Notes: generated from the letters alone by a model not told the origin. Counted from the first letter of the stretch, positions 44,357 through 64,000 are shown. The stretch is DNA of 64,000 bases from Escherichia coli (GCF_030013595.1 NZ_CP122768.1), one strand, 5' to 3'. Made by a program: numbers and translations.

Positions 44357-44371
44357 TATAGAGGGAATTTT

Positions 44372-44674: not shown

Positions 44675-44680
44675 TCAAAA

Positions 44681-44815
44681 GGATGGGGCAGTTTTTTCCT
44701 CTTGCGTATGCAAGGGCGGCTCTGATAATGAACAGTAATATTTTACTGTTGAGCTTATGCTCACTGATCCTGCCGAGCAGGATGTTCAACGGTTCCAATA
44801 TATCCTGCCCCTTCC
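44681..44815 (+). ncRNA. Candidate structured leader or ncRNA upstream of the SLATT-RT operon
   Basis: 11-nt inverted repeat GGATGGGGCAG (44681-44691) and CTGCCCCTTCC (44805-44815), 10 of 11 bp, enclosing four hairpins: 44701-44714 (5 bp), 44731-44750 (8 bp), 44751-44762 (4 bp), 44767-44783 (7 bp). Alternative reading is a leaderless 51-codon N-terminal extension from ATG 44683. Confidence 0.35.
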
Positions 44816-44835
44816 GCTTTTTAAAAGGATATTTT

Positions 44836-45387: not shown

Positions 45388-46735
45388 AAAGTCATTCTCG
45401 AAAAAAAACCTTCTAAAAGTATACAATGAAAAAATCAAAGAATCAGGAGCGATTGGCATAGATCGGATTCGTCCATCAAAACTTGATTTAACAATAAAGA
45501 ATGAGATCACTTTTATTTTTGAAAAGGTTAATTGTGGAAATTATAAATTTACAGCATATAAAGAAAAATTAATATCTAAAGGGGCTAACTCTATCCCCAG
45601 ACAGATTTCCATACCAACTGCCAGGGACAGAATTACCCTTAGGGCTCTCTGTGAATGCCTTACAGAAATATATCCTAACTCCAGATTAAAACTACCACAT
45701 ACAGTAATTGACTTATTGAAAAATGCATTAAACAGCGATCTATATGCTGAATATGCAAAAATAGATCTCAAAAGTTTCTATCCTTCAATTGAACATAAAT
45801 TGATATTTAATGCAATAAAAAATAAGATTAGAAAAAAAGAAATTAGGCAGTTAATAACATCATCATTAATCGTGCCTACTGTAAGTGGAAGTACAGGAAG
45901 CAAAGGTGTCCCTAATAATACCAGAGGAGTACCTCAGGGGTTAGCAATATCAAACATTTTAGCTGAAATATCACTATCTGATTTCGACAATGAAATCAAT
46001 AAAATGCATGACATATGGTACATGCGATACGTTGATGACATTCTTATTTTAACGCAAAAAGATCAAGCAACAAAAATTGCATCTCATATCATTGATAAGC
46101 TTCAATCATTAAATTTAAACCCACATCCATTAAATGAAGAGAACTCAAAATCCAAAGTAGGCAGCTTGGATGAAAGTTTCAACTTTTTGGGCTACCACAT
46201 AAAAAATCGAGAATTATTGATAAAACATGAGAGCATTCTTAGATTTGAGTCATCCTTAGCAAAAATTTTTACTGCATATAGACACGCTCTACTACAAGCT
46301 AAAAATAAGCGCGATAAAGAACGAGCTGTTGCATATTGTCAGTGGAAACTAAATCTTAGAATTACGGGGTGTGTGTTTGAAGGTAAACGATTGGGATGGG
46401 TATCGTACTTCTCACAAATAACGTCAACAGCTCAACTTCGAGCTGTTAATCATACGATCAATAATCTTATCCGCCGATTCGGCCTTTCATCAGAAATAAA
46501 ACCAAAGTCTTTGATTAAAACTTTCTATGAACTCCGCAGGGGTAGAGCGGAGACTTTTAAATACATACCTAACTTTGACAATCTACATATATCTCAGAAA
46601 CGAGAAATTGTTTCTATGTGGATAGGGAAAGAGAATGAAAAAAAACTTAGCAATAGTGAAATAGAGAGAAAATTTAAATTTAAAATTGCGAAATCAGTAA
46701 AAGAGCTTGAAGAGGACATTTCAGGGATATCATAG
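45365..46735 (+). CDS. Reverse transcriptase (RT domain plus ~170-aa C-terminal extension), family unassigned
   Basis: RT motifs in order: GIDRIRPS...IPRQISIPTARDRITLRAL, YAKIDLKSFYPSI, GVPQGLAISNILAEISLSDFD, YMRYVDDILIL (YVDD at 46028-46039), FLGYHI; ATG 45365 (track ORF starts at TTG 45359); AT-rich. Confidence 0.85.
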   Translation: MNASRVFKKSFSKKNLLKVYNEKIKESGAIGIDRIRPSKLDLTIKNEITFIFEKVNCGNYKFTAYKEKLISKGANSIPRQISIPTARDRITLRALCECLTEIYPNSRLKLPHTVIDLLKNALNSDLYAEYAKIDLKSFYPSIEHKLIFNAIKNKIRKKEIRQLITSSLIVPTVSGSTGSKGVPNNTRGVPQGLAISNILAEISLSDFDNEINKMHDIWYMRYVDDILILTQKDQATKIASHIIDKLQSLNLNPHPLNEENSKSKVGSLDESFNFLGYHIKNRELLIKHESILRFESSLAKIFTAYRHALLQAKNKRDKERAVAYCQWKLNLRITGCVFEGKRLGWVSYFSQITSTAQLRAVNHTINNLIRRFGLSSEIKPKSLIKTFYELRRGRAETFKYIPNFDNLHISQKREIVSMWIGKENEKKLSNSEIERKFKFKIAKSVKELEEDISGIS

Positions 46736-46847
46736 ATATGTAATCCATTAAATCCTTTATATATAAAGCAATAAACACACTATTTAAATTCACAAATCAG
46801 CCGCAGTATCCTGCCATGACAAGTTGCTGCGGCATATCACAAAACGA

Positions 46848-47432
46848 TTACTCCATAACAGGGACCGCAGGCCACTCAATATCAGGTGCAGTTGATGTAT
46901 CAACACGGTTCAGCAACACCCGATACTTTTTCCAGGCTTCCAGCAATGAGTTTTCTTCCTCCGTTGCGATTTCCAGATCTACAGCATCCTGAAGTGGCGC
47001 AATATGCTCACTGGCTACCTGCATCAGGTTGTTTTTTGTTTCTTCCGCCTCCCGGATCCGGAACAGTTTTTCTGCTTCCGTATCCTTCAACCAGGCTGTG
47101 CCGTTCCACTTCTGATATTCCCCTTCCGGCGATAACCAGGTAACATTTTCCGGTAACGGACCGAGTTCAGAAATAAATAACGCGTCGCCGGAAGCCACGT
47201 CATAAACCGTTTTACCCCGATGATCTTCAACGAGATGCCACGATGACTCATCACTGTTGAAAACAGCCACGAAGCCAGCCGGAATATCTGGCGGTGCAAT
47301 ATCGGTACTGTTTGCTGGCAGACCTGTATGAGGCGGAATATATGCGTCACCTTCACCAATAAATTCATTAGTTCCGGCCAGCAGATTATAAATTTTTATG
47401 GTCCGTGGTTGTTCACTCATTCTGAATGCCAT
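46848..47432 (-). CDS. tfa: Tail fiber assembly protein Tfa
   Basis: 194-aa [61 protein letters not shown]; reads as lambda Tfa. Confidence 0.9.
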
Positions 47433-50400
47433 TATGCAAGCCTCACAATATAGTTAAATGCGATGTTTTTGACGGTGTTTTCCGCGTTACCAGCAGCGTT
47501 AACGGTGATGGTGTGTCCATGTGAACCAATCGCAACGGAGTGCGTGTGTGCACCAATACCGACAGTATGTGCGTGTGCACCTGCAGATGCTGCTGTGCCG
47601 GACAGTGAGTGGCTATGGTTACCATCTGTACTGGTATTAGCTAACGCCCCCGTAGACATACCTACTGAGCCTTGTACACCCCAGGTATTTTGACCTGAGC
47701 TTGTATAACCATATTGATAAGTATCTTTAAAAACACTGGGGTTAAATCGACGGCCATCTCTATGGCTGTGATTACCAGCTGCATTCGTGCTGCCACTTAA
47801 ACTATGGGTATGCGCACCAGTGTTATTCGTGGATTTAGTGCCGTAATCAAACGACGATGTGGTTTTCGTCCCCAAATCAGTACTGGATGCGCTGGCGCTG
47901 TGGGTATGCGATTTTATGCCGTCCTGTTCCTGAGACAATACGGCACGACCACTGGCGGGCTTGCCCTTAATCGTCCAGCCACGCATATCAGGGATCACGC
48001 CTGACGGATAAGCGGCTGCAAGTTTCGGGTAGGCAGATTTGTCAAAAGTCTGCCCCTGCATCAGGGCATAACCAGACGGAACGGTATCTGATGGCCACGG
48101 AATTGGTGCGCCAACTGGGTAGCTTTCTGGTGGAAGATTTTTCGAGGTATAAACTTCTGCCCAGCCTTCCTCAAAACCATAGCCATCTCTTGAGGAACGG
48201 TAGAACAGACCTCCATTTCTGTAATGCGCCTTCATCTGCAGGGTCCGGCAACTTCCGACTCCGGTATAGAAGTTAACCAGAATATAGCTGTCGCCAGAGC
48301 GGGTGACATTGTAAGCGCCTGATTCGGCATTCCAGGGAACGCCACCATCCGCATCGGCATATGTATCCGTTGCCCTTCTGGCAAAAGCAGCCACATGCGC
48401 GGCGGTTAAAGTAATATCTTTTGAACCATCAAACTCAACCCCAGAAACCAGTCTTGGCGTTTGCAGCTTTGTTGCTGTCAATGCGTTACCGTTCAGACTT
48501 GCAGACAGTTTGGTTCCAATAACCAGTTCGCCGGTTGCGTTATCAATAGCAAACGGTCTTAATGTATTCCAGCCACCATAAACATCACCTTGATTGGTAA
48601 GCAGCAGGTAAGTTTTAGCGCCATCATTACGCCATAATGCCCCATACTCCCCACCTATCATTCGAATCTGATTACCACCACGCGCTACAATTTCGTCTGT
48701 GGCAAAAAGTTTTTTGCACGACAAGTTATCGTTAACGATTAACGAATGGGACTCATAAAAACCACGCCCACTCTTAAAATCAAGGATAACGTCCGCCGCG
48801 ATACATTCAGTCGCCGGATTTGTTGCCCCAAACTTATAGGTCGTATCATTAACAACGAGATCAGCACCAGGTGCGGATATTGACAGGCCATCTTCGATAA
48901 ACGCAAAAACAGGGAAAGCAGCGCCATCAACATAGAACACAGAGCGCAAATCATCGCCCTTATTACTCATCATTATTGAGTGGATGGCTCGTTCATTGTT
49001 TTGATATTGCCAGAACATTCCATAAGCATAACGCCCCCTGTCAGTCCAGCCACCAGGCATAACAAATCCGTTAAACTCGCAGTTATTCATCGGATCGCCT
49101 GCGGTTCTCGTTGCCGTGGTGATAATGACCCTTGATGCCAGTTCGCTTACTGAGCCAGCAGAACGCATAACAACAACAGGGTAATATTTTCCAGATGTTG
49201 CACCTGCAGGAGCGTTAACCCGCACATAACGCATACCACGCTTATCAGCAAAGTCTGTTTTACTGACCGCGTTAATGTTGTTCAGGAAGCGTCCCTTATC
49301 GGGTATATCAGCGCCGTTCTGGTCTTTCTGCAGACGTTTCTCTGCATTGTCATAGGCTGATTTTACTGCCTTTGGCGTTGCCGCCAGCGTTTCAGACGAA
49401 CTGTTGGTCGCACAGCTGAGCTGTACTATCCCCTTTTTCGTCGTACTTGCATCCTCAAGCGCCACGGCGGATGCAATATCCTCTGCCCGTTTTGCCGCTG
49501 TCTCGGCGCGCGTTGCCGCGGATTCCGCCGTACTTTTGCTCTGTGCTGCCGCCGTCGCACTGCCAGCTGCCTCTGTCGCCTTCGTGGATGCTGTCGTGGC
49601 GCTGCCCTTCGCTGCGGACGCTTGTCTGGTCGCCTCATCTTTTGAAGCAGACGCCGATGATGCCGATGACGCCGCCGAACTGGCGGACGATGCAGCTGCC
49701 ATTTTTGAGGATTCTGCGCTGGTTTCCGACGCTTTCGCGTTCGTCTCGGATGTCTTCGCTGCGGAAGCAGACCTCGCTGCTGCGCTGGCCTGTTCAGTGG
49801 CTTCGCCAGCCTTCGTTGTGGCTGTTGAAGCAGACGATGCGGCACTTTCTGCCGATTTTCCGGCGGCGGTGGCACTGGCTGAGGCCTGCCCGGCACTTGT
49901 TGACGCGGCACTGGCAGACGACGCAGCCGCTGTTTTTGAGCCTGCCGCAGCCGAGGCGCTCTGTCCCGCTGCCGTTTCAGAAGACCTGGCGTTTGTCTCA
50001 GACGTCTTTGCCGCCTTCGCGGAATTGCCTGCCGCCGTTGCCGAGGAAGCGGCACTACTGGCGCTTGATGATGCGTTCGTTTCTGATGATTTCGCTGCCT
50101 CTTTTGAGGCCGCCGCATCCCGGGCTGAGGTGGCTGCTTCTGACGCCTTCGTGGTCGCGGCGGATGCAGAAGTTGCTGCTGATTGTTGTGACGCTGCCGC
50201 ATTCGTTTCTGACGTTTTCGCCGCAGCGGCACTGGTAGCTGCCGCGCTTTTTGAGGACTCTGCAGCAGCAGCACTTTTCGATGCTTCACTGGCCTTTGTT
50301 GATGCCGTTCCTGCGCTGGAAGATGCTGACTGAGCCGACGACGCGGCCTGTCCGGCTGACGTGCTGGCTGCGCGTGCTGAGCCTGCAGCATCAGTCGCAT

Positions 50401-50836
50401 GGGTTGCCGCCTCACGGGCTGATGTGCAGGCATCGCTGGCTGACTTCTTCGCGGCTGCCGTGTTCTGTGCCACCGCGGACGCGTTACGCGCCACCTCTTC
50501 CACCATCAGTTCAAAACGGCGCAGTGCCTCAGGACGGGCATCATCCTCCGTCATGGCACCGAGAAAATCATTCAGCGTACCGGGTCGGGAATCTTCATAC
50601 ACGGTGATGGTCCCGGCATGTGACGGCGGGAATCCCTCCACCAACAGAATAACGCTGTACTGCCCGTACTCAACGTCCATGCTGTAACGCCCGGCTTCAT
50701 CCGGATTTTCTGAGGCCAGCGTGTTCACCACCACCGTGGTGCTGTTACGTTTTGCTTTCAGCTGGATTGTGCAGTTCTGTACCGGTTTTCCTGTGCCGTC
50801 TTTCAGTACACCTGAAATCTTTACTGCCATATTCAC
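47432..50836 (-). CDS. stf: Side tail fiber protein Stf with expanded Ala/Ser/Thr-rich repeat region
   Basis: N-terminus [36 protein letters not shown] (lambda Stf-like; track ORF starts 2 codons earlier); 1134-aa track ORF; repeats such as AAKTSETNA; C-terminal fibre domain. Confidence 0.85.
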
Positions 50837-50841
50837 CCCAC

Positions 50842-50868
50842 AAAAAAGCCCGCCTGAACCGGCGGGCT
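50842..50868 (-). terminator. Intrinsic terminator downstream of lom
   Basis: Minus strand reads AGCCCGCCGGTTCAGGCGGGCT followed by a T run. Confidence 0.5.
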
Positions 50869-50894
50869 GTCATAACACTGTGTTACCTGGCTAA

Positions 50895-51494
50895 TCAGAA
50901 TTTATAACCGACACCCACAATGAAACCGTCAGTGCGCCAGTCACCACTGCCGGAGCCTTCATAAGCAATATCAATGGCCACGGATTCGGTCGGGTTAACC
51001 TGCACGCCAGCTCCCCACGCCAGAGACGTGTTGCTGTGGCGACCGTCATCACTTCCGGTCAGCACGTCGTGCGTTTTCCCCTTGTTGTCAGTTACGCGGA
51101 GATAATCCCCGGAGAAAGTCGACACACGGCTGTAAGCCACACCCGCCATCGCATACGCGCTGAACCATTCATTCACGCGCACAGACGGCCCCGCCATTAC
51201 GCTGAACCAGCGGTTACGAACGGAATCTTCATGCCAGCTGGTATCGCTGTAATGCGTTTTTTGCTCATCTCCAGCGTTGGCATAACTGAATGACGTAATC
51301 AGCCCCAGCGTGTCCGTAAACTCATAACGGTATTTCACGTTAATCCCGTTCAGATTATCGCTGCCGGGAGCGTTCGTACGGGCATGAAGATACCCTGCGC
51401 TCAGTGTGGCCTGCTGCTCAGACGCCCATGCAGGCGCACCGGATACGGCCAGACAGATGGCTGCGGACAAAATGGCTGCACAAACTTTACGCAT
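50895..51494 (-). CDS. lom: Ail/Lom-family outer membrane protein
   Basis: 199-aa ORF with signal peptide MRKVCAAILSAAICLAVSGAPAWA and C-terminal GYKF; lambda lom position. Confidence 0.85.
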   Translation of the reverse strand: MRKVCAAILSAAICLAVSGAPAWASEQQATLSAGYLHARTNAPGSDNLNGINVKYRYEFTDTLGLITSFSYANAGDEQKTHYSDTSWHEDSVRNRWFSVMAGPSVRVNEWFSAYAMAGVAYSRVSTFSGDYLRVTDNKGKTHDVLTGSDDGRHSNTSLAWGAGVQVNPTESVAIDIAYEGSGSGDWRTDGFIVGVGYKF

Positions 51495-51561
51495 AATTAC
51501 CTCTCGCTTTTCTGCAATAAAAAAGGCGCCATTTCTGGCGCCCGTATATGGGTTATAAAAT

Positions 51562-54500
51562 TCAGCTGATACTGATGCCTGCGGTGGCTTTCTTCATCAC
51601 CACAACCAGCAAATCGCTGATACTTGCTGTGGGATACCAGTCATTTACCAGCCATGATGACACCGAAAACTCCAGCGTCATGTGGCCGCGACCAGCTGGC
51701 ATATCAATAACACCACTGTAAATCAGCGTATTATCCAGCGCGGTACGGTTATAAATTTCAGCACCGTTTTTCCGTACTATCAGGCGGCATGACGAATAAA
51801 TATCGTTATTCTCCCTCTCATGTTTAGCGCCGCTGAATGCCACCGCCGGAATAACAATCTGCCGGTCAAACGGCTGATCGTCATAAACCCTGACGGTGAT
51901 GGTCCCTGATGGCCACCGTTCCGGTGCACGGGAGTCCCGGGGGAAAGCTTTGCCCACTGTTTTAACGAGATCGCCTTCAATCTGGTTGGCGGACAGTTTT
52001 CCCAGAACCCGACAGTTCTCGTTAATCGTGACGTTGTTGAGCGTCCCGGAGTTCGCATTCACGTTACCGCTGATATCGGCATTTTTCGCCGTCAGCCGCC
52101 CGTCCGGTGTCAGGGAAAATACCGGAGGATTACCGCCGCTGGTAATGGTGGGAGCCGTCAGGCGTTTCAGGAACACGTCGTTCATGAATATCTGATCGCC
52201 CTGCCCAACAAACATCGGCTTTGTGTTGCCATTCGCAGGATTAATCATCGCAATCCTGTCTGCCGCCAGCAGCACCTGACTCTGCATGCCGTCAGGGGTG
52301 TTCTCAATACCGGCACCAATACCCGCGATATAAAGGCGTCCGTCCTGCATCTGCTGCAGCTTCACAGCCCACATGCTGTTCAGGTTATTATTTGTATCAA
52401 CCTGAACCTGCTGTATCTGCTGAATTGCCGCACTCTGGTCTTCCAGTTTCTTATTGACGGTCTGCGTGATTTCATTGCTGACATCCGTAATGGACGTCCT
52501 GATTTCAGCCAGGTCAGGCGCAAGCTGACCGTTATCAATCTGCGTCCACAGCTCCTGAGCCAGATGGGTTTTCCCTATCTCGCCTTTGAAAAAATCCAGA
52601 TAGCCGGATGCGTCATCACTCGGCTGACCAACAGCCTCCACGAATGCCGATTTGCCAACGGTGTTCACACTGCGAACGTAAAAATAATAATTATGGCCCG
52701 GCCTGATATTGATACTGGCGGCTATCCAGTACAGCGCCGTGCCAAGATAGCGTGCTGTGGTTTCAACCTGCCTGATATCCGCAATCCGCTTTTCCGAGAA
52801 CCAGAACTCAAACTGTACCGTCGGATCATAAACCGCAAGATGCGGCGTGGCGGTTATCTGAAAATAGCCCGGCGTCAGCTCAATCCGCGACGGCGCTGCC
52901 GGTGCGGCAATCCGGAACGATACCGACGCCGGATCGCCCTGCTGCCCCCACGCATTTACTGCCCGGACTGTCAGCCTGTAGTTCCCCAGCGCCAGTTGTG
53001 TGAAGCAGTAAGTGGTTTCCGTCGTCCGGGCCGTGCTGACCAGCCGCTCACTGCCGTCATCCGCTGCCACGGTCAGGCGAAGCAGGAAGCTCACGCCCTT
53101 CACCACCTTCGGCGTGTCCCAGCGCGCCAGCACCTGATATTCCCCGCTGTCTGCGGTGACTTCGGCAGTCAGGTGCTGCACTGCTGGCGGCGTGACACCA
53201 TTCACCGTGGCGCTCTGGTCACCGTCAAAGTGCGCCCCGTTATCCACGATGGCTTCTTTTTCCGGTACATGCTGCACGGCGGTGATGGCATACGTGCCGC
53301 CGTCGTTCTCACGGATACTCACGCAGCGGAACAGGCGCTGGCGCAGCGTCGGCAGCTTCAGCCCCCACACGCTGTATTCAGCAACACCGTCAGGAACACG
53401 GCTCACTTTCACCTTCACGCCGTCGGTGACGGACTGAACCTCCACGCTGACCGGATTGCCACTTCCGTCAACCAGGCTTATCAGCGTGGTACCGGAGGAT
53501 GGCAGCGTGATTTCACGGTCGAGCGTCAGCGTCCGGGTCTGGCTGTTCACCGCCAGCACGCGCCCGCCGGTGCTGATACCGGCATAGTCATCATCGCAGA
53601 TTTCAATGACATCGCCCGGTACATGGCGAAGCCCCTCAGCACCCACGCTGAAGTCCACGGTCTGCGTTTCCAGCAGCTCCGTTTTAATCAGCCACAGCCC
53701 GGCGCGGTGTGCCTGCCCCCGGCTGGTACAGCCAAAGGCATCCATCTTCGTGACGTTACGACCGTAACGGACAATGGCCTGCGTATCCTCCACAAGCTCT
53801 GTCGCCGTCTCCTGGCCGTTGTTCGGGTCAATCCAGTTCACCTCAACGGCATTATGGCGGTCCTTCAGGGCGCTGAAGCTGTAGCGGAACGGCGCGCCAT
53901 CATCCGGCATCACCACATTACTGCGGTTATAGGTCCACACCTTATCCGACGGTCGGTCCTGCACGAACGTCAGCGTCTGCCCGTTCCATACCGGCATACA
54001 GCGCATCGCCGAGCAGAAATCACTGAGTACATCCCACGCCTTGCGCTGTGTGGTCAGGTAAGCGTTACAGGTGATGCGCGGCTCCGTGCCGCCAGAGCCG
54101 TCCGGCACCAACTGGTCGCAGTACTGACCGATGACATACAGTGCCCATTTATCCACATCTGCCGCACCAAGACGTTTCCCCATGCCGTAGCGCGGATGGG
54201 TCAGCATATCCCACAGACACCAGGCCATGTTGTTGCTGTATGCTGGCTTTAACGTTCCGTCCCAGATACCGCTGTATTGCCGCGTCTGCGGGTTATAGTT
54301 CGACGGCACCTGCAGAATGCGCCCGCGAAGATGATAATTACGGCTCACCTGCTGGCTGCCGAACTGCTCCGAGTCCACCTGCACGCCAACCAGTGCCGTG
54401 TTCGGGTAGCACTGTTTCACATCGATGATTTCGGTGTATGACGACCAGAGCGTTTTGTTCTGCAGCTGGTCTGTGGTGCTGTCCGGCGTCATCCTGCGCA

Positions 54501-55041
54501 TCCGGATATTAAACGGACGCGGCGGCAGATTATCCACCACTACCGAGGCCAGATACTGCGAGGTGGTTTTGCCCTTAATGGTGATGTCTTTTTCCGTCAC
54601 CCAGCCACCGTTACGCTGTATCTGAACCAGCAGGCGAACTTCCGACGGATTCCGGTCCCCCTTTGAGGTGGTTTCCACCAGTGCCTGCACGCCGAAAGTA
54701 AAACGCAGACGGTCAATGTTTGCCGACGTGATGGTCCGGGTGATCGGCGTGTCATATTTCACTTCCGTACCCAGCACCGTCTCGGAGCCGGAGGATTCAA
54801 ACCCCTCCGGCGGTATCTGCTCCTGCTCACCGGCCCGGAACACCACCGTGACACCGGAGATGTTGGTATTCCCCTCACTGTCCAGCACCGGCGTGCTGTT
54901 CAGCAGCACGCTTTTTAATCCATCCACCGGACCTTCAATCGGCCCTTCGCTGATTGCATCAATCACACTCAGCAACTGCGTGGACTTCAGATTGTCCTTC
55001 GCTTCGCGCGGGGTATGCCCCTTACTGCTGCCTTTACCCAT
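51562..55041 (-). CDS. J: Host specificity (central tail fibre) protein J
   Basis: 1159-aa [51 protein letters not shown], matching lambda gpJ N-terminus. Confidence 0.9.
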
Positions 55042-55101
55042 GTCTCAGACCCCATAAACGACAAAACCGCCCGAAGGCGGTTTCACATAAAACATTTTGC
55101 A

Positions 55102-55749
55102 TCAGCGACCAATCACCACAACCGGACCACCGTCCCCTTCATCTGCCGTGCTGATCTCCTGAGAAACCACACGAGACCCCACACGCATTTCACCGTACAG
55201 AACGGGCAGAACATTGCCCTGGGCAACCATGTTATCCAGTGACGAGAAATACGTGTTCTGTTTGCCGTTATCTGTACTGGCTGCCGTGGGCGTCCTGGCT
55301 TTCGGTGCCAGCATCTGCGCCACACCACCCAGGATCATACTGGCCCCTGCTGCATACAGACCCGATACAGCCGCGGCCCCCAGCCAGCCAACAGGGCTCC
55401 ACCATGCCACCGCAATCAGCGCCGCACCCAGCACCGCCTGAAACACACCGCCACTTTTGGCACCCGCCAGACGCGGCACGATGTGGATCACGGCACCATT
55501 TGCCAGCGGCTCATTAAGACGGGCAGACAATTCGGTTTCACCTGCATCACGCCCGGCAATGCGTACCTGGTACCAGCCGTCGCTCAGTTTCTGACGAAAC
55601 GCCGGGATCTGCATAGCCAGCGCCCGGATGGCTTCGGCCCCCGTTTTCACTCGAAGGTCGATGCGGCGGCCAAATCGTTGTAAATCCCCGTAAAGGCAGA
55701 TGCGTGCCATGCCCGGTGACGCCAGAGGGAGTGTGTGCGTCGCTGCCAT
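55102..55749 (-). CDS. I: Tail assembly protein I
   Basis: 215-aa ORF MAATHTLPLASPGMARICLYGDLQRFGRRIDLRVKTGAEAIRALA; overlaps the 3-prime end of the K ORF, start uncertain. Confidence 0.8.
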   Translation of the reverse strand: MAATHTLPLASPGMARICLYGDLQRFGRRIDLRVKTGAEAIRALAMQIPAFRQKLSDGWYQVRIAGRDAGETELSARLNEPLANGAVIHIVPRLAGAKSGGVFQAVLGAALIAVAWWSPVGWLGAAAVSGLYAAGASMILGGVAQMLAPKARTPTAASTDNGKQNTYFSSLDNMVAQGNVLPVLYGEMRVGSRVVSQEISTADEGDGGPVVVIGR

Positions 55750-56390
55750 TTGTCGGTGTACCTCTCTCGTTTGCTCAGTTGTTCAGGAATATGGTGCAGC
55801 AGCTCGCTGTCACCACAGTAAATGGCGGCATGATTCGGCACCGATGAACCAAAACAGCACAGCAGCACATCGCCCGGCTGCGCCGCTGACAACGGCACCT
55901 GATACAGCCCTGTGGCCTCCAGATTATCCAGATAGAGATTCTGACCGTTACGCCACCAGTCATCCCCGCGATGAAAATCCGGCATCTCAATCCCCGCCAG
56001 ATGGTAAGCATCCCGGAACAGCGTGTAACAGTCCGTCACCCCGTGCTCAAAGCGCCGCCCGGTGAGATGCGGCACACAGCGGAATTTATGAATCTCACCC
56101 CGGCAGACCAGCCACCACGGCAAATCACTCTGCACCTGCAGCCGCCGGTCAGCCTCACTCAGCCAGGGCAGACCACCGGGGTGGCTGTGGACCAGCGCCA
56201 CAATCTCACCCTGCATTTCTGCCCGCAGCCAGTCCTCCGGCGACATCCGGAAATACTCCTCCGGCTCACCGGAGATATTCACGCAGGGAAAATATCTTTC
56301 TCCCTCCGGCGTTCTCACCACGAAGCCGCACGACTCCGCTGGCGCACATCGCCGGGCGTGCGCCAGAATCGCTGATTCTGTTTCTGTCAT
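55647..56390 (-). CDS. K: Tail assembly protein K (NlpC/P60-like)
   Basis: 247-aa ORF MTETESAILAHARRCAPAESCGFVV with catalytic-type Cys/His context. Confidence 0.85.
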   Translation of the reverse strand: MTETESAILAHARRCAPAESCGFVVRTPEGERYFPCVNISGEPEEYFRMSPEDWLRAEMQGEIVALVHSHPGGLPWLSEADRRLQVQSDLPWWLVCRGEIHKFRCVPHLTGRRFEHGVTDCYTLFRDAYHLAGIEMPDFHRGDDWWRNGQNLYLDNLEATGLYQVPLSAAQPGDVLLCCFGSSVPNHAAIYCGDSELLHHIPEQLSKRERYTDKWQRRTHSLWRHRAWHASAFTGIYNDLAAASTFE

Positions 56391-56395
56391 GGGAT

Positions 56396-57094
56396 TTACT
56401 GCGAAAGTTTGTTAATGGAAAGGAAGCCGCCAAAGTTGCCGACGTTATTGCGGAACTTACAACCGCTCAGGCATTTGCTGCATTTATCCTTCGTGATATC
56501 GGAGGTCGGCTGGTCATATTCATCCGCGACCGCCGGACCGTGATAACCGCACTCATCGCCGCGATAGGTCCAGGTGCAGGTGTTGGCCAGCATGATACGC
56601 CCCGGAAAAACAGCGCCGTCCGTTTCCGTCGGCGTGGCCAGTACAAAAGAGGCACTGACCGCGCTCAGTTCGCTGCACTGCTCGATGCGCCAGCGGCTGA
56701 TCACCTCCTGCTCCGGGTCGGCGTCACTGTTTCCGTTGACGAAGTTCACCGCATCCAGAAAACGGGCGTAAACCTTACGCCGGACCACCGTTCCGCCGAC
56801 CAGACTCTGCAGATCTTCCGCCATCCCGGTGACCATACCGTGCAGGTTAGAAACCGTCAGTGTCGGACGGGCAGCACTGCCCTTGCCGTTCAGTTCAAAT
56901 CCTGTCCCCTGAATGGGGTATGCCTGATACTGCCGCCCCTGCCAGGTAACCGGCTCACCTTTTTCGTTCTGCTCATTACAGAAAAAATAACGTTCACCAC
57001 CGACCTCTGTCAGATCGATTTCCCAGAGCACCACCTGGGCTGACTGAGTGAGGCGTGTCGTCTCATGATGTGTTTCCTGTGGAATATCCTGCAT
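56396..57094 (-). CDS. L: Minor tail protein L
   Basis: 232-aa ORF MQDIPQETHHETTRLTQSAQVVLWEIDLTEVGGERYFFCNEQNEKGEP; lambda gpL-like. Confidence 0.85.
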   Translation of the reverse strand: MQDIPQETHHETTRLTQSAQVVLWEIDLTEVGGERYFFCNEQNEKGEPVTWQGRQYQAYPIQGTGFELNGKGSAARPTLTVSNLHGMVTGMAEDLQSLVGGTVVRRKVYARFLDAVNFVNGNSDADPEQEVISRWRIEQCSELSAVSASFVLATPTETDGAVFPGRIMLANTCTWTYRGDECGYHGPAVADEYDQPTSDITKDKCSKCLSGCKFRNNVGNFGGFLSINKLSQ

Positions 57095-57103
57095 CAGAGC
57101 CTC

Positions 57104-57433
57104 CTATGCCACGACCTGTTCAAAATCTGCCGTTATGGTTACCCACAGCGCCCCCACGCTTGCCGACCATTTACGACAAACCACCCTAATCGGTTTCCAG
57201 TCATAAGGTGGCGTCCACTGAAATGCGCGGACGCCACCGTGCCGTTCCAGAAAGGCTTTTAAAGATGGGTGTTCACATTTACGAACACGTATCGTCACGC
57301 TGTAAGTCGACAACTGGTTATTCAGTCCCGCCGCACGACGCTGTTCATAACCATCGCCCAGCTTCACTGTCACCACTTTCGGCTCTGATACCACATTCAT
57401 ATCCGGGCGCACTTTCCAGTGAAACGTCTCCAT
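57104..57433 (-). CDS. M: Minor tail protein M
   Basis: 109-aa ORF METFHWKVRPDMNVVSEPKVVTVKLGDGYEQRRAAGL; lambda gpM-like. Confidence 0.85.
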   Translation of the reverse strand: METFHWKVRPDMNVVSEPKVVTVKLGDGYEQRRAAGLNNQLSTYSVTIRVRKCEHPSLKAFLERHGGVRAFQWTPPYDWKPIRVVCRKWSASVGALWVTITADFEQVVA

Positions 57434-60400
57434 TACCGATATGCTCCACTTAACCGACCACCATCACGGGCCTGCTGTTGCATAAAGTCCGCTGCCGCTT
57501 TTTTCCCAAGGTCATAAACCACCTTCAGGGCAGCCGGACCTATCTGCCCGTTCGTGCCATCGTTATTGATCTCAATGTTGTACTGCGGGGCAAACATCGC
57601 CATACCTGAACCACCAATATCCGCCACAACCCCCAGCTTACCGTCAGCACCACGACGCAGTGGCAGAATGGCTTCAGGTCCAGCTTCCCCCATCACACCC
57701 GCGCCTTTTGCAAAAGCAAAAAACGTCGGACGGTTAACCACCGTGCCACTGTAACGACTCAAATCAGCAGACTGATAAATCCCCCCATTGGCATTCAGGG
57801 AAAGGCTGCTGAGATCAAATCCCAGTACACTGCCAATCCCTTTTATCGATTTCATCATGGTTGCCTGCGCCAGGATTTTCGCCATATCTGACAGCACCGA
57901 AGAGGTGAAGGATTTGAAGTTGAGTTTGCCGGTAGTGACAAAAGTTGCCAGGCCATTTCCCATGTTGCTGAAGGCTGATGAGAACACCTGTTCTGCTGTT
58001 CCTGCCGTATTGTCTGCATCCACGGTAAAATCCTGAAATGCACGCAGGACTCCGTTTTTCCAGTTACCCTGCACAACTTCAAGCTGTTGCCAGTAACGGC
58101 GATTCTCATTCAGTTGTCGGTTCAGGCTCTCCGTCAGCGCCTGCTCGGCCTTTCTGTAGTCATCCGTGTTATATGTCCCTTTCTGCTCACTATCCCGCCT
58201 CAACTGCTCCAGCTGTTGCTGGTATTTCTGGCGAAGACTCAGTTGTACCTGATATCGCTGCCGCTGCTGATCACCCATACCCACCGTGGCGATATCCAGG
58301 TCATGTTGCTGACGCTGAGCGCGCTCTTCTTCAGCCAGTTGACTGGTCAGCTGAATTGTTTTTTTCTTCAGATCGTTGAGTGCCGTCTGTTTCTGAAGCT
58401 CCTGCTGTTTTACATCCAGCAGCGTCAGTGCCTGAATCAGTTCATCTTTACGGGCCAGCACACTCTTTTCATCTGCCGTCAGTTTTTTCCCGTCCAGATC
58501 GCTGATGCGCTGCTGCAGAGCCAGAAGCTGTTTATGCGCTTCTGTCATCTTTTCAGTGGCAATGCCTGCTGACTGTCTTGCAGCAGCAATCTGTCCTTCC
58601 ACCTGTGCCTGTTGCTGACTGTACTGCAGCAATAACCGGGTGGCCTCATCATTACGGGGTTCGCGTGTTTTTTTCTTACCGGATGCCAGGGCTTTCTCGT
58701 AACGTTCATTTTCACGTTGTATCGCCGCATCCCTGACAGCCTGATCGGCGTACTGCATGGCATTAATACGCGCAATTTCACGCTGATGTCGTGCTGCTTC
58801 CGTTTCATTCATCCGGTTCAGTGCAGCATTTTCAGCATTACGGCGTTTCTGTTGCTCCTGATAATTCCGCTCTGCCTGCTCTTTTGCATCCTGCAAATCC
58901 TTCTGGCGTTTTTTCTCCTGAAGCTCGTTAAGACGCTGCTGATCGTACTCAACCTGAGAAGATGATGCCGTCCAGGGGAGTCTTTTCGCCCGCGACACTT
59001 TCTCCTGTAAAGCGGCAATCTGTTCATCCAGCGAGTCTTCACGACCAATATTCATGGCCGCATCCCAGAAACGACTCCATAAATCAGACAGATACTTCAG
59101 CGTACTGCCCAGCGCATTGAGGTTATTATCAATATCCGCAGTACGCCGACCGGTTTCCTCTGCCAGTGCAGACATGGCTATCCGTGCCGCATCACTGGAC
59201 CGCCCCTGTTCCCCAAGGACGCGTATCTGTTCAAGCTGAGTGGCAGTAAGAAAATGCAGCTCATTGTCCAGAGCCTTCGCGGCATTTACAGGATCATCCT
59301 TCAGCCGCTTAAACTGATTTATGGTATCGCTGACCGACTGGCCAACCGATCGCTCCATCTGTGCGGCAGCTCTCGCCACCATACCGATATCGTTTCCACG
59401 AAATGCACCACTCCCCACCACCTGAGCCAGCGCACCGGCTGCAGCATGTTGCGTAATACCATTCCCGGAAATAGCACGACTGAGCGTCCACAGCTGCCCG
59501 GCAGTGACTCCGGCATAATGCCCCGTCAGCGACAACTGGCGGTTAAATTCTTCCCCCTCCTTCTGACCATCATACCAGGCTTTACCCAGACCATAGACGG
59601 CCGCGGCAATACCGCCAATAACCCCACCTGGCATCATGCCTTTCGGTGACATCAGTGTGTCTATCCATCCGGCACGGTTAGCCAGCGTTATCCCGGATCC
59701 CCTCAGCGCACCTAAATTGCCGCGAGCCAGTTCACCTATCAGAACGCCTATCTCCTGGCGGGCCGCTGCACTTTTCAGACCCAGCGAATGCGTGGCTTTT
59801 CCTGCCTGCTCCATTTTGCGGATATACACTTCTGCAGCACTGCTTACCCCCAGCTGGGCAGCCTTAGCACGAAGCAACTCAGAAGAAGAAAGATTCTGGC
59901 GGGTTGCCTGCTCTTTAAGCTGACGGATAAACGCCACTTTCTGTCGGGTAGCCTCTGCCTCAGCCTGCGTAAGAACACGGGTTTTCGCCGTAACCTCAGA
60001 AATCAGCGCCAGATAATCCTGCTGACCAATCCCGCCACTGTTTCTGGCCTGTCGGATCTGCTGCTGAATACGCTGTAATTCCTGCAGCCCCGCACTGGCC
60101 TGTTTCACACTGTCAATCTGACGATAAAACGCAGCAGCCGCTTTATCCTGAGCCTCCGCCAGAGCCATGGCCTGCGCCTGTTCCTCGCGCATTTTCTGGC
60201 TCAGTGCCTCCATACGCTGGCGGGTTTGCTCCACCTCGCGGGCCATGCGTTCATGAGCCTGTGCGCTCTTCTCCACCGTCTGCGCATGGACGGATGCGGC
60301 TGTTGCAGCCGAAGAAGCCGCCTGCATTGTCTGCCGGGCGGCCTGAGTCTGACGCTCCATAAAACGCTGCATACGGGCAGAAGACCGTTCTGCATCGCTG

Positions 60401-60507
60401 GCTGTACCATTCAGAAGGTTTTTGATACGGGGAATTTCATTTTTAAACTCTGCCGCATCAATCCCCAAATCAATGACCAGGTTGGCTATCTGGTCCATAA
60501 CGCACAC
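57433..60507 (-). CDS. H: Tail tape measure protein H
   Basis: 1024-aa ORF, coiled-coil-rich (Q/E/R/A-rich) with glycine-rich C-terminal region; lambda gpH position. Confidence 0.85.
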   Translation of the reverse strand: MCVMDQIANLVIDLGIDAAEFKNEIPRIKNLLNGTASDAERSSARMQRFMERQTQAARQTMQAASSAATAASVHAQTVEKSAQAHERMAREVEQTRQRMEALSQKMREEQAQAMALAEAQDKAAAAFYRQIDSVKQASAGLQELQRIQQQIRQARNSGGIGQQDYLALISEVTAKTRVLTQAEAEATRQKVAFIRQLKEQATRQNLSSSELLRAKAAQLGVSSAAEVYIRKMEQAGKATHSLGLKSAAARQEIGVLIGELARGNLGALRGSGITLANRAGWIDTLMSPKGMMPGGVIGGIAAAVYGLGKAWYDGQKEGEEFNRQLSLTGHYAGVTAGQLWTLSRAISGNGITQHAAAGALAQVVGSGAFRGNDIGMVARAAAQMERSVGQSVSDTINQFKRLKDDPVNAAKALDNELHFLTATQLEQIRVLGEQGRSSDAARIAMSALAEETGRRTADIDNNLNALGSTLKYLSDLWSRFWDAAMNIGREDSLDEQIAALQEKVSRAKRLPWTASSSQVEYDQQRLNELQEKKRQKDLQDAKEQAERNYQEQQKRRNAENAALNRMNETEAARHQREIARINAMQYADQAVRDAAIQRENERYEKALASGKKKTREPRNDEATRLLLQYSQQQAQVEGQIAAARQSAGIATEKMTEAHKQLLALQQRISDLDGKKLTADEKSVLARKDELIQALTLLDVKQQELQKQTALNDLKKKTIQLTSQLAEEERAQRQQHDLDIATVGMGDQQRQRYQVQLSLRQKYQQQLEQLRRDSEQKGTYNTDDYRKAEQALTESLNRQLNENRRYWQQLEVVQGNWKNGVLRAFQDFTVDADNTAGTAEQVFSSAFSNMGNGLATFVTTGKLNFKSFTSSVLSDMAKILAQATMMKSIKGIGSVLGFDLSSLSLNANGGIYQSADLSRYSGTVVNRPTFFAFAKGAGVMGEAGPEAILPLRRGADGKLGVVADIGGSGMAMFAPQYNIEINNDGTNGQIGPAALKVVYDLGKKAAADFMQQQARDGGRLSGAYR

Positions 60508-60799
60508 CTCCGGAAATACCTTCCCCCAGATGCATCAGTTCTTCGTCCGTTCGCTCCGGTATCCCGTTCTCTTCCGGTAAAAGGCTGAAATCAGCCACCG
60601 CAGCATCACTGCTACCGGACACCATTCTCACGATCAATGCCTTCAGCGAGGCAAACTGCGCATCCATCCACACATCACTGAAGCTCTGCATCCGGAAATA
60701 ATCGCCCCACTCACCAAGCTCAGTGGCCGACATTTCCGACAGCATCCGCCGCCAGTCTGCCCGCCGGAACTCCCGGGCAAGCCGCATGACAAACTGCAT
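60470..60799 (-). CDS. T: Tail assembly chaperone T segment (expected to be expressed as G-T fusion by -1 frameshift)
   Basis: ORF in the -1 frame relative to G and overlapping its end; lambda G/GT arrangement. Confidence 0.65.
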   Translation of the reverse strand: MQFVMRLAREFRRADWRRMLSEMSATELGEWGDYFRMQSFSDVWMDAQFASLKALIVRMVSGSSDAAVADFSLLPEENGIPERTDEELMHLGEGISGGVRYGPDSQPGH

Positions 60800-60807
60800 T
60801 TCCCGCG

Positions 60808-61236
60808 TCAGGACTTTTCCGGCGTCAGCACCTCATGCTCCAAATCCCCGGCATTCTCAATGGCTCCCATACCGCTCAGCGACAGAACCATCTCCGCCCC
60901 CGCTCCCAGGGCATCATACGACCATGTTGTAATAACGGATGCGCAAAGCGTCTCAACATCCTGAGACTGTTCCGCATTCCACAGTGAGCGGGAAACCAGC
61001 CAGGCATTGATATCCATCCCCATCCGCAGAAAAGCAATCTGTCGTTCAGCCTCCGGCAGTTCTCCCTCTTCGGCATCAAACTTTGCCGTTCGCTGCTGAA
61101 CAAACGCCAGATATTCAATTCTCTGCAGCCCGGACAGCTCACTGAGCACCACGGACTGCTTTTCATAATTAAACGTGCCCTGTTTCAGAAACATCATGTT
61201 CTCCACCTGCAAAAAAGCCCCGGATAACCGGGGCAA
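60808..61236 (-). CDS. G: Tail assembly chaperone G
   Basis: 142-aa ORF ending EHEVLTPEKS; position between V and T. Confidence 0.8.
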   Translation of the reverse strand: MPRLSGAFLQVENMMFLKQGTFNYEKQSVVLSELSGLQRIEYLAFVQQRTAKFDAEEGELPEAERQIAFLRMGMDINAWLVSRSLWNAEQSQDVETLCASVITTWSYDALGAGAEMVLSLSGMGAIENAGDLEHEVLTPEKS

Positions 61237-61254
61237 ATGATGAGTATCGTCCTG

Positions 61255-61998
61255 TTAACCTGCGGCGCTGACAGCCACCGCAGCCACTGCCACAAAATCG
61301 CCGTCAGAAGTCATGCCCACAATGCTGACACTGCCCTGCTTCACGCCTTTCACCGTGGCCACAAGCCCGTTCAGGGTCACCGTGGCAGTCTGTGGATCTG
61401 TCGAATGCACACTGATCGCTTTGTCACTGGCTCCGTCAGGTTTTACTGTAAAGGTCAGCGTGGTGGTTGCTCCCACTTTTACACTGGCAGATGCCGGTGA
61501 TACTGTCAGCCCGGTAACGCTCACGGTTTCAGTGCCTTCCTCTGCCAGATACGGACGCCCCACACCGCTGATTTTCACTGTGCGGGTCATCACGTCTTTT
61601 GAGGCAATGGTTTTACCCAGTGAGCTCAGCCAGCCACGGAAAACATCAACAGTGCCGTTGGGATATTTGATACGAAACGCGCAGACTTCACCGGAGTCGA
61701 ACAACTGAACCAGTTTTTTCTGCCCGCTGTCACCCGGACGCCAGGCCAGCGTCGCCGAAGTATCACCGACGGATTTCTGCCCCTGGGTTGTCGTTTTCCA
61801 GTCTGCATCTTCATCATCGAGATAAGTGTCATCTTCTGCATCAGCGGTCATTTCGCCAGGTTGCAGATCCTTCACCATCGCAAGACGCAGCCAGTCAGTG
61901 TCCGATAAAGGGTTCGCAAACGCATCGCCCTTGCCGGTGTACATCCAGAACGTCGTTCCCGCACCTTTCGTTTTTGCCAGTGGATTTGGTGTGGTCAT
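61255..61998 (-). CDS. V: Major tail protein V with C-terminal Ig-like domain
   Basis: From internal Met: MTTPNPLAKTKGAGTTFWMYTGKGDAFANPLSDTDWLRLAMVKDL (lambda gpV-like), C-terminal Ig-like segment; track ORF starts 25 codons earlier. Confidence 0.85.
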   Translation of the reverse strand: MTTPNPLAKTKGAGTTFWMYTGKGDAFANPLSDTDWLRLAMVKDLQPGEMTADAEDDTYLDDEDADWKTTTQGQKSVGDTSATLAWRPGDSGQKKLVQLFDSGEVCAFRIKYPNGTVDVFRGWLSSLGKTIASKDVMTRTVKISGVGRPYLAEEGTETVSVTGLTVSPASASVKVGATTTLTFTVKPDGASDKAISVHSTDPQTATVTLNGLVATVKGVKQGSVSIVGMTSDGDFVAVAAVAVSAAG

Positions 61999-62008
61999 TG
62001 CCACCTCC

Positions 62009-62409
62009 TTAATTCGTGTACGTGATCTGGTACGTGATTTCCGCCATCGCCCAGGTGGCCATCTCATTATCACGTTGATAGTTAAAACCGAGTGGGATCA
62101 GGGTGTCGATGAGTCCGGAAAGTGCCGGTACATCATTCAGGGCCGGGAAAATGGTGCTCTCCATCCACATATCCAGCTCTGAATCCGGTGCCTGTGCCCG
62201 GATGAAGACAGCAATATGCAGAACAGCCTGCCAGTCATCTTCATCCGTCATTTTTCCGGTGTACTGAGCATCACTCAGCCACACCGCCACGGCAGGCAGT
62301 TCCTGCGCATCAACAAATGCCGGAAGCCCGTCAAAAAACGTGGCGCTGTCTCCACACTGTTCCCGAAGGCGTGCCAGTACGACCTGCGGATTTGTGTATG
62401 TCGGTTCAT
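62009..62409 (-). pseudogene. U: Tail terminator protein U, apparently frameshifted near codon 9
   Basis: ATG overlapping the Z stop (62407-62409) opens a frame reading MNRHTQIRR... that ends after 43 codons; the U-like body (VVLARLREQCGDSATFFDGLPAFVDAQELPAVAVWLSDAQYTGK...ITYQITYTN) is in the -1 frame with no ATG/GTG/TTG before the GTG at 62290. Confidence 0.5.
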
Positions 62410-62984
62410 CGGGTCAGCCATAACCTCAGTTGTTGTTTCAGTGCATACCCCAGCTGTTTCGGCATTTCCGCAGCAATGATGCGGTCGCGGGCATCTTCAA
62501 ATGCCTGTGTCAGCTGTCCGGACAGAGGGATTTTCACCACATCAATGGGGTAACGATTTTTGCCATCAATACGCCGCATCACATGCCAGCGACCATTCGC
62601 CAGTTGCTGAATAAACGCATCCCGGAAAAGATATTTACCCACCTTCAGCACGCTGCCACGGTACTGCAGTTTTCCACCACGCCGGGTCAGTCTGACCCGG
62701 GCGGTCCCCAGCTTAATGGCAGGCAGATTGCCCCGGTTAACGCGGATCCTGGCCGTCATTTTTCCTGACGGACTGGCTTTAAACACCCGGACACGCTGAC
62801 GTACCAGTTTCAGGGGGATCCCTTTCACCTGGTTATCTCCCGCAACGGTATTCCCGGCAACCTGCCGGGTGGCAACCGAGACCGCTTTCTGTGCCACACG
62901 GTTTATCGCCCATGCGCTGGCCTGTGGCACCATACGGGTATCAAGGCTGTTCAGATTGCGGATGGCATTCTCAAGCCCCTTCAT
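62406..62984 (-). CDS. Z: Tail completion protein Z
   Basis: 192-aa ORF in lambda gpZ position and size. Confidence 0.75.
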   Translation of the reverse strand: MKGLENAIRNLNSLDTRMVPQASAWAINRVAQKAVSVATRQVAGNTVAGDNQVKGIPLKLVRQRVRVFKASPSGKMTARIRVNRGNLPAIKLGTARVRLTRRGGKLQYRGSVLKVGKYLFRDAFIQQLANGRWHVMRRIDGKNRYPIDVVKIPLSGQLTQAFEDARDRIIAAEMPKQLGYALKQQLRLWLTR

Positions 62985-62995
62985 CCCACACCTCT

Positions 62996-63271
62996 TTACT
63001 CAATAAAGATCATTGGCTTACCGTTAAAGCGTTCATGCCGTGTGACCGTCCAATGTTGTCCGTCATAAACAACGCGATCCCCGCGCCGTGGGCGGTATCC
63101 CGAAGAAAACACCACCAGAGAGACCGCAGGTCCGGACAGAGCATTCAGCTCTGCCAGTGTTTCTCCCGGGATCACAGTCATATCGACATCATTAATCGAG
63201 GCTGTCTTTCCCATCTTTCTGACCGTGATCGCATCCATACGCGCTGCCAGCCGGGAAAAGGGATCAGACAT
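62996..63271 (-). CDS. Head-tail joining protein (FII-like)
   Basis: 91-aa ORF MSDPFSRLAARMDAITVRKMGKTASINDVDMTVIPGETLAELNALSGP; position upstream of Z. Confidence 0.55.
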   Translation of the reverse strand: MSDPFSRLAARMDAITVRKMGKTASINDVDMTVIPGETLAELNALSGPAVSLVVFSSGYRPRRGDRVVYDGQHWTVTRHERFNGKPMIFIE

Positions 63272-63587
63272 TGAGTTTTACCGGCACTTCTTCTGCACTG
63301 GTTCCGGCATCTGCCCAGACAACCCCGACCAGCGGATCAGAGCCGCTGTTAGTCAGCTGAACTTTTCCGGACTTCAGATAAACCTTCTTACCCGTTTTCA
63401 TGTCATCCGTTTTCAGCTTAGGCAGCATAAACACACCTTCGGTCAGGCCGTCGCCTGTTTCACCCTGTGGAATATCGGTCAGCGCCACCGCAAAAACATC
63501 ACCCACCTGCACCAGGTCTCCGCTGCTGATGGCTGCACTGGCAACAATCGCCACCGTTTTTCCTTCTTCTACAAAATTCTTTGCCAT
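63264..63587 (-). CDS. Small phage head-associated protein (DUF2190-like)
   Basis: From internal Met: MAKNFVEEGKTVAIVASAAISSGDLVQVGDVFAVALTDIPQGETGDGLTEGVFMLPK; track ORF extends upstream across a terminator. Confidence 0.45.
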   Translation of the reverse strand: MAKNFVEEGKTVAIVASAAISSGDLVQVGDVFAVALTDIPQGETGDGLTEGVFMLPKLKTDDMKTGKKVYLKSGKVQLTNSGSDPLVGVVWADAGTSAEEVPVKLNV

Positions 63588-63630
63588 AACTGTCTCCGCA
63601 CAGCCTCGTTCAGGGGCTGATTTCAGGTAC

Positions 63631-63650
63631 AAAAAAAGCCCTTACGGGCC
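63631..63650 (-). terminator. Intrinsic terminator after the upstream head gene
   Basis: Minus strand reads GGCCC-GTAA-GGGC (GNRA-type loop) followed by T7. Confidence 0.5.
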
Positions 63651-63673
63651 ATCAGAGTTGTTGTCTGCGACGT

Positions 63674-64000
63674 TTACGCCGTACATTTCACCAGACCGCG
63701 GTGATCAACTGGCGCGACACCGGCGTCAATACGCACTTTCGTTGTCACGCCATCCACACTGAAGCCCTCCATCTGATCAATATATGGCGTATCCACACCG
63801 TTGAGATAAGCCACTTCAATCGTATCGGAGCCTTTTGACGCAGCCAGGTAGAAGGTGGTCTGGCTGTTATCATCAAGACGGGGCTCTGCAATAACGGTCG
63901 CAAAATCTTTCACCGGGTTAATAATACCGGCGTTAATGTCAGCCCCCTTGACACTTGAGGAGCGAATGACCTGGTTAGCAACAGACTCCATCGCCGTCGG
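63674..64000 (-). CDS. Phage structural protein, probable major capsid C-terminal fragment; 5-prime end outside window
   Basis: Minus-strand frame open to the window edge, ending ...GVAPVDHRGLVKCTA; followed by a strong terminator as is common after capsid genes. Confidence 0.4.
   Translation of the reverse strand, partial: PTAMESVANQVIRSSSVKGADINAGIINPVKDFATVIAEPRLDDNSQTTFYLAASKGSDTIEVAYLNGVDTPYIDQMEGFSVDGVTTKVRIDAGVAPVDHRGLVKCTA

Follow-up and report, generated by a model that had tools for sequence, protein, structure and literature searches.

Genes and features of the region

The window analysed here is a stretch of 64,000 nucleotides of Escherichia coli DNA (NZ_CP122768.1). Its segment 44091–64000 very probably (probability about 0.93) belongs to a temperate lambdoid siphovirus, present as a prophage within the 5' end of prfC and assignable to the mEp460/Ayreon/cdtI lineage (Zimmerviridae, Wollmanvirinae); the segment is the half on the side of the attachment (att) site. 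The window shows about 20 kb of a phage genome of roughly 45 kb. According to the open reading frame (ORF) map, the minus strand from 46848 to 64000 is occupied without interruption by phage late genes. The ORF map, the Pfam families and the ordered BLAST matches to lambda all give the order of a lambdoid late operon on a single strand (capsid, neck, Z-U-V-G-T-H-M-L-K-I-J, stf-tfa), and each tail gene falls in the matching lambda Pfam family. From the capsid gene to tfa the features are as follows (aa, amino acids; nt, nucleotides):

63674–64000, minus strand: end of the capsid gene, about 108 codons (Pfam Phage_capsid_4); the gene runs off the window
63637–63650, minus strand: terminator-like hairpin GGCCC-GTAA-GGGCT, then T7, 3' of the capsid gene
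63264–63587, minus strand: capsid cement (decoration) protein, 107 aa (formerly DUF2190, Pfam Phage_cement_2, PF09956, E 2e-20)
62996–63271, minus strand: neck protein, 91 aa, a remote gpFII homologue of the Gifsy-2 STM1035 / PDB 2PP6 family
62406–62984, minus strand: Z, tail completion protein, 192 aa (Pfam Minor_tail_Z, E 2e-76; 50% to lambda Z)
62009–62409, minus strand: U, tail terminator gene, frameshifted (54% to lambda U; the intact W150 version matches Pfam Phage_tail_U, E 1e-60)
61255–61998, minus strand: V, major tail tube protein with a C-terminal Ig-like domain, 247 aa (Pfam Phage_TTP_12 and Big_2; 55% to lambda V, 68% to Gifsy-2 V)
60808–61194, minus strand: G, tail assembly chaperone (Pfam Phage_TAC_2; 33% to lambda, 56% to Gifsy-2)
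60470–60799, minus strand: T, tail assembly chaperone (Pfam Phage_tail_T; 38% to lambda, 52% to Gifsy-2)
57433–60498, minus strand: H, tape measure protein, 1021 aa (25% to lambda H, 60% to Gifsy-2 H)
57104–57433, minus strand: M, minor tail protein, 109 aa (Pfam Phage_min_tail; 56% to lambda M, 61% to Gifsy-2 M)
56396–57094, minus strand: L, minor tail protein, 232 aa (93% to lambda L; holds the main mosaic junction)
55647–56390, minus strand: K, tail-tip protein, 247 aa (Pfam Prok-JAB and NLPC_P60; 97% to lambda K)
55102–55749, minus strand: I, tail-tip assembly protein, 215 aa (Pfam Lambda_tail_I; 78% to lambda I, with a diverged central patch)
51562–55041, minus strand: J, tail-tip host-specificity protein, 1159 aa (83% overall to lambda J)
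50895–51494, minus strand: lom-like outer-membrane moron, 199 aa (Pfam Ail_Lom, E 5e-124; 44% to lambda Lom)
47432–50836, minus strand: stf, side tail fibre, 1134 aa, an enlarged, different middle between lambda-like ends
46848–47432, minus strand: tfa, tail fibre assembly protein, 194 aa (Pfam Caudo_TAP; 95% aa to lambda Tfa, 96–100% nt to lambda)

Relatives of the prophage

Compared with the Escherichia phages mEp460, Ayreon and cdtI, the region shows 96–97.6% nucleotide identity across 70–88% of the query. High identity over the structural genes, as expected of a member of the Wollmanvirinae, amounts to 96.5–97.6% across 78–88% of the query and to 96–98% over the capsid end, the cement and neck genes, Z–M, L–I and the larger part of J; these phages also have the gene order and the hairpins between genes that are seen here. 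Between 64000 and 51941 the alignment with Ayreon has 2 gaps and 97.9% identity. Thus the mosaic pattern relative to lambda, described below, is that of a known lineage and not that of a new recombinant. From 51941 on, the identity with Ayreon drops or vanishes (J C-terminus, lom, middle of stf), and the cargo between the att site and tfa, made of small hypothetical genes in Ayreon, is in the window a DRT10 module. The window copy further differs from mEp460, Ayreon and cdtI by a frameshifted gpU.

Phages mEp460 and cdtI are classified in the Zimmerviridae, subfamily Wollmanvirinae. Lambda belongs to the Zimmerviridae too, but to the subfamily Jacobvirinae (genus Lambdavirus). In the practice of the International Committee on Taxonomy of Viruses, about 70% whole-genome identity delimits a genus and about 95% a species.

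At least 80% of the window interval 40000–64000 is covered in 150 complete E. coli genomes. The top match among complete genomes is strain W150, which has 98.7% identity and stays colinear for 22 kb, interrupted by one 1-bp gap. The full element of W150 is a prophage of about 45 kb with prfC on one side and yjjG on the other. It carries genes for a DUF1441 small terminase, a gpA-type large terminase, a lambda-family portal and a ClpP-protease/capsid fusion, as well as lysis, Q-like antiterminator, repressor and integrase genes.

Attachment site in prfC

The end of the prophage on the prfC side is marked by one feature:

44091–44110, no strand assigned: attachment-site core at the prfC end, GGGTGAGAAATAAT(T)GCAAA, within the first prfC codons

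The core was mapped by a four-way comparison of the window attL, the W150 attR, the empty site of K-12 (attB) and the Ayreon attP. K-12 attB, Ayreon attP and W150 attR share one 20-nt core, GGGTGAGAAATAAT(G)GCAAA. The window attL differs from it at 44105, which is T in the window and G in K-12 attB, Ayreon attP and W150 attR. The attL of W150 also has a T at the position corresponding to 44105. To the right of the core the 5' end of prfC and the sequence upstream of it are replaced by a phage-supplied substitute, similar but not identical to the original. The window junction matches the Ayreon attP region over 231 nt (96.5%), with the 20-nt core in common, and this match together with the insertion in prfC corresponds to an attachment of Wollmanvirinae type. 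Since prfC is a documented integration site of lambdoid phages, Shiga toxin (Stx) phages included (PMC10132054), and given the four-way comparison, we place the start of the prophage at about 44091; the late-gene row is therefore its att-proximal part.

Another repeat, ATTATGTACAA(T/G)CATATGTACA, was the first att candidate. It was dropped, the four-way comparison putting the crossover core at GGGTGAGAAATAAT(G/T)GCAAA. Repeats of this type, which contain TGTACA, are found near both prophage ends (window 44311–44340 and 44367–44388; L002 48482–48503). They may be arm-type binding sites of the integrase.

Mosaic relation to lambda

Each protein was compared with lambda by blastp, and a MAFFT-based profile of nucleotide identity was drawn along the region. 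From 62900 to about 57045 the nucleotide identity to lambda is 26–68%. The main junction lies at about 57045, some 15 codons into L, where identity rises from about 0.6 to at least 0.9 (at 57041). It is high throughout L and K, dips to 45–62% within I (55540–55325) and is high again over 55193–52694, the N-terminal two thirds of J, with 94–97% over 55193–52794. Beyond about 52580 it is below 40% and the C-terminal ~340 aa of J are not lambda-like; the last 332 aa are 96–98% identical to VT1-Sakai, PhiR55_1 and other J proteins. As this receptor-binding end (51562–52580) is of the VT1-Sakai/PhiR55_1 type, the receptor is probably not that of lambda. Later lambda-like patches cover the lom 3' end and stf 5' end (50960–50061), a short part of stf (48065–47866) and the stf end with tfa (47452–46853). 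By blastp, Stf is 80% identical to lambda orf-401 (residues 3–354) and 71% to orf-314 (residues 906–1134). In total the blocks at least 85% identical to lambda in nucleotides make up 5.3 of 17.1 kb (31%), far from the high identity along the structural region expected of a Lambdavirus.

The proteins Z, U, V, G, T, H and M, at 25–56% aa identity to lambda, are family-level homologues and not near-lambda proteins. Together with the head genes they form a single block of Gifsy-2 type, which is colinear with Gifsy-2 at 43–70% aa. An initial annotation of the region, made from its sequence, had read it as a lambdoid prophage mosaic relative to lambda, which agrees with the lambda-family tail genes and Gifsy-2-type head genes found here. 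It had also described Tfa, the Stf ends, J, K, L and M as essentially lambda proteins. Judged on the identities and the profile, this is right for Tfa (95%), the Stf ends (80% and 71%), K (97%), L (93%) and most of J, and wrong for M (56%) and for the C-terminal ~340 aa of J. The junction that it had put at the head/tail border has to be moved: the break is inside the tail module, at about 57045 in L, and Z–M group with the head block.

Comparison with Gifsy-2, lambda and HK97

All 21 late genes compared with Gifsy-2 are colinear at 43–76% aa, except lom (30%), which has a non-syntenic position in Gifsy-2. The likeness covers TerS, TerL, a W-like gene, a lambda-family portal, the ClpP-scaffold-capsid gene, STM1034, STM1035, Z–J, stf and tfa. 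Gifsy-2 differs in its host genus, integration site and morons (sodC, gtgA, sseI), and L, K and the N-terminal part of J are closer to lambda (93–97%) than to Gifsy-2 (67–76%).

With lambda the prophage shares the functional gene order from Z to Tfa, the near-identical L, K, J N-terminal two thirds and Tfa, the related Stf ends, and a G/T overlap with a –1 frame. The head genes are different: lambda D, E and FI have no detectable similarity here and FII is related at profile level only. The decoration gene precedes the capsid gene in lambda and follows it here, no FI gene is present, and the protease is of ClpP type and fused to the capsid protein. A BLAST comparison of the capsid end and of the 107-aa and 91-aa proteins with lambda D, E, FI and FII gave no match, and with the W150 head genes included no member of the Lambdavirus set of head genes (C/Nu3, D, E, FI, FII) is matched by BLAST.

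The comparison was extended upstream with the W150 relative. W150 TerS, W, protease-capsid, cement and p91 (the 91-aa protein) have no match in lambda, TerL is 25% identical to its lambda counterpart, and portal 22% over part of its length. The view of the initial annotation that the arrangement of the head-proximal genes is not the FI/FII/E one of lambda is thus upheld by the lack of lambda BLAST matches, and a colinear alignment with lambda W–FII, which would have spoken against it, is not seen at sequence level in W150. At the level of function the order is still lambda-like, apart from the decoration gene placed after the capsid gene and the missing FI.

HK97 resembles the prophage in its putative terminators, annotated after the capsid and major tail genes, and in M, L, K, I and J, homologous at 33–37%. 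Its protease (gp4) and capsid protein (gp5) come from two distinct genes and it lacks a cement protein, whereas a cement gene is present in the window, and the head module is not of HK97 type. HK97 was also considered as the source of the head genes and rejected: tblastn (E 1e-3) found no match from terminase, portal, protease, capsid and neck through Z, U, V, G and T.

Head-proximal genes and hairpins

The window holds the C-terminal ~108 codons of the capsid gene, and the complete ClpP-scaffold-capsid fusion is visible in W150, Ayreon and Gifsy-2. In W150 it encodes a 675-aa ClpP-protease/scaffold/major-capsid fusion with CLP_protease and Phage_capsid_4 domains, 70% identical to its Gifsy-2 counterpart. 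For Gifsy-2, a tripartite capsid gene and a trimeric decoration protein at the three-fold sites are described (Effantin et al. 2010, cited in PMC8538268). The cement gene follows the capsid gene directly, as in the Gifsy-2-type module. Its 107-aa product is 60% identical to Gifsy-2 STM1034, and a fold search matches cement proteins. A sequence search of the PDB with this protein gave no meaningful match, leaving the fold search (on a model with a predicted local distance difference test, pLDDT, of 69) as the informative one. A homology of the cement protein with gpD was rejected at sequence level (hhalign probability 0.2%).

The 91-aa protein lies between the cement gene and Z, the place of the STM1035/2PP6-family protein in Gifsy-2. 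Its score against Pfam PF05354 (Phage_attach) is 18.9 bits, below the cut-off of 26 (E 0.0024). It has remote homology and a shared fold with head-closure (stopper) proteins, and it is encoded directly upstream of Z. Position, profile and fold indicate that it is a gpFII-like head-closure protein, and Pfam, PDB and fold evidence supports both the neck and the cement assignments. The FII-like protein, the DUF2190-like protein and the capsid C-terminus of the initial annotation are all present, at 62996–63271, 63264–63587 and 63674–64000 respectively; the homology of the first to gpFII is remote, and the family of the second is now Phage_cement_2. Two database names of the neck protein are misleading, “DNA breaking-rejoining protein” (PGAP/RefSeq) and “ATP-binding sugar transporter-like” (PDB 2PP6, Pfam PF13856).

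The capsid gene is followed by the hairpin, and the Ayreon record annotates a terminator at the matching place. Gifsy-2 keeps the stem and the T-run after its capsid gene, with the loop TGAC where the window has GTAA. The “GNRA-loop terminator” of the initial annotation therefore stands as a hairpin with a GTAA loop and T7, while the GNRA loop itself is not a conserved feature. The fold energy relative to shuffled sequence (z = –1.27) is not significant by itself, and consequently the support for the hairpin is its conserved position in Ayreon and Gifsy-2. Comparable hairpins lie 3' of V (61234–61217), J and lom.

Frameshift in gpU

Aligned with W150 and Ayreon, U lacks one base pair at 62386/62387, where CCGCC is reduced to CCGC, and the reading frame is shifted after codon 8. 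Over 22 kb no other indel separates the window from W150. The extra base is present in 1828 of the 1830 E. coli records having this stretch of U, and no full-length carrier of the deletion in another genome appears among the matches listed. The deletion is either a private inactivating mutation, which would make a tail-defective prophage, or an assembly error.

Cargo slot between tfa and the att site

Four features lie between the att core and tfa:

44372–44620, plus strand: DinI-like pseudogene with a frameshift and stop codons, next to the att site
44619–46827, plus strand: variable cargo slot, 36% GC; SLATT and UG17 reverse transcriptase genes forming a DRT10-type defence module
44836–45387, plus strand: SLATT gene (PADLOC RTasSLATT, E 2e-57; Pfam SLATT_5)
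45365–46735, plus strand: UG17 reverse transcriptase gene (PADLOC RT_UG17, E 8e-159; Pfam RVT_1)

The GC content is 52–58% along the late-gene row and 36% in the 2.2 kb separating tfa from prfC. Homology to the prophage of strain 4114 ends at 44618 and restarts at 46828, the slot of strain 4114 being occupied by DUF4236 and DUF2971 genes. Flanked by the att core (44091–44110) and tfa, the reverse transcriptase (RT) module is inside the prophage; it is cargo of a prfC-integrated mEp460-type prophage, and the expectation that this region would tell which phage carries it is borne out. DRT10 has been described as a system that synthesises tandem-repeat complementary DNA in a protein-primed manner, copying a non-coding RNA whose gene lies upstream of SLATT (PMC12632851). 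By analogy, this RNA would be expected at about 44620–44835. The DinI-like gene is intact in the strain 4114 prophage (82 aa, 83 codons including the stop) and is labelled “frameshifted” by PGAP in W150.

Probable expression and assembly of the late gene products

By homology with the related phages, transcription antiterminated by Q would read the late operon on the minus strand. The fusion protein would assemble, cleave itself and expand, and trimers of the cement protein would stabilise the shell, a capsid of Gifsy-2 type. The FII-like protein would close the neck at the portal and present the surface for tail docking. Z and U would complete the tube made of V, the length of which would be set by H with the aid of G and of a G-T product. 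A candidate –1 slippery site, GGAAAAG, is found at 60820–60814, just ahead of the G stop codon, and the T frame stays open in the –1 frame across it; by analogy with lambda G-T, a –1 frameshift probably makes the G-T product at this site. The tip would be composed of M, L, K, I and J and the side fibres of Stf and Tfa, giving a flexible tail of lambda style.

An Rfam scan of 42000–64000 returned one family, RF02111 (IS009), and nothing besides. The match is full length (46891–47089, minus strand, 226 bits for a gathering threshold of 117) and lies wholly inside tfa. It is probably a candidate small RNA family defined on prophage tfa genes and not an independent RNA gene.

Origin and state of the prophage

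The origin of the segments can be read in several ways. The region could result from a single joining, at the FII/Z border, of a lambda tail module (Z–Tfa) to a foreign head module, since Z–J all fall in lambda Pfam families in the lambda gene order and the genes upstream of Z lack lambda BLAST matches. The profile contradicts this: identity to lambda stays at 26–68% in nucleotides from 62900 to 57045, reaches at least 90% only inside L, and no discontinuity is seen at Z/p91 against either Ayreon or Gifsy-2, which makes such a single joining very improbable. Still less credible is a novel recombinant private to this genome with an unseen head/tail combination. It is true that the best complete-genome match, at 98.7%, falls short of 100%, and that the J C-terminus, lom, stf and the cargo are unlike Ayreon. 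But W150 and about ten other genomes match the window colinearly along all 24 kb and so also carry the RT module, one 1-bp gap aside; each variant segment has 96–98% matches in known phages; and the same combination of segments occurs in W150, ES7/ES8 and NCCP 15734. The pattern is best explained, as a whole with high confidence (about the same 0.93), by the membership of the prophage in the mEp460/Ayreon/cdtI lineage. On sequence comparison, its terminase-through-M block is Gifsy-2-like and distantly lambda-like, L–K, the J N-terminal two thirds, the Stf ends and Tfa appear to have been exchanged recently with lambda-like phages, and the receptor-binding end of J is of a third type (VT1-Sakai).

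Some points weigh against this interpretation. Given the gpU frameshift, the window copy may be unable to make working tails. The window stops at 64000, and the head, lysis, regulation and integrase genes attributed to the prophage are those seen in its relatives; likewise the protein functions are putative, being assigned by homology, and the confidence of the cement model is moderate (pLDDT 69). It is possible, if rather unlikely, that the element is a cryptic prophage that makes no infectious particles and is kept as a carrier of cargo beneficial to the host (DRT10, Lom). The absence of the frameshift from 1828 of 1830 homologous E. coli copies, the DinI-like pseudogene and an attL core one base off attR, attB and attP would fit such a decay. 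The frameshift, as the only indel in 22 kb, could nevertheless be a sequencing or assembly error; every other visible late gene is full length, and the DinI defect and the core substitution are common to W150, whose prophage is otherwise complete.

Significance

The prophage in prfC is of a known, widespread and ordinary kind, whose mosaic relation to lambda is already present in sequenced phages, and no new kind of element is revealed. The value of the analysis is in the context it gives: the carrier and the boundaries of the DRT10 module are fixed (slot 44619–46827 of a prfC-integrated mEp460-type phage), the positions of the mosaic junctions with lambda are corrected, and the two misleading names of the neck protein are flagged. 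As a tentative proposal, the att–tfa slot of about 2.2 kb in Wollmanvirinae-type prophages may be an exchange point for defence cargo, and the window copy may have lost infectivity via a real gpU frameshift while DRT10 was retained. If so, the region would show a prophage at the start of its domestication, centred on a defence module.

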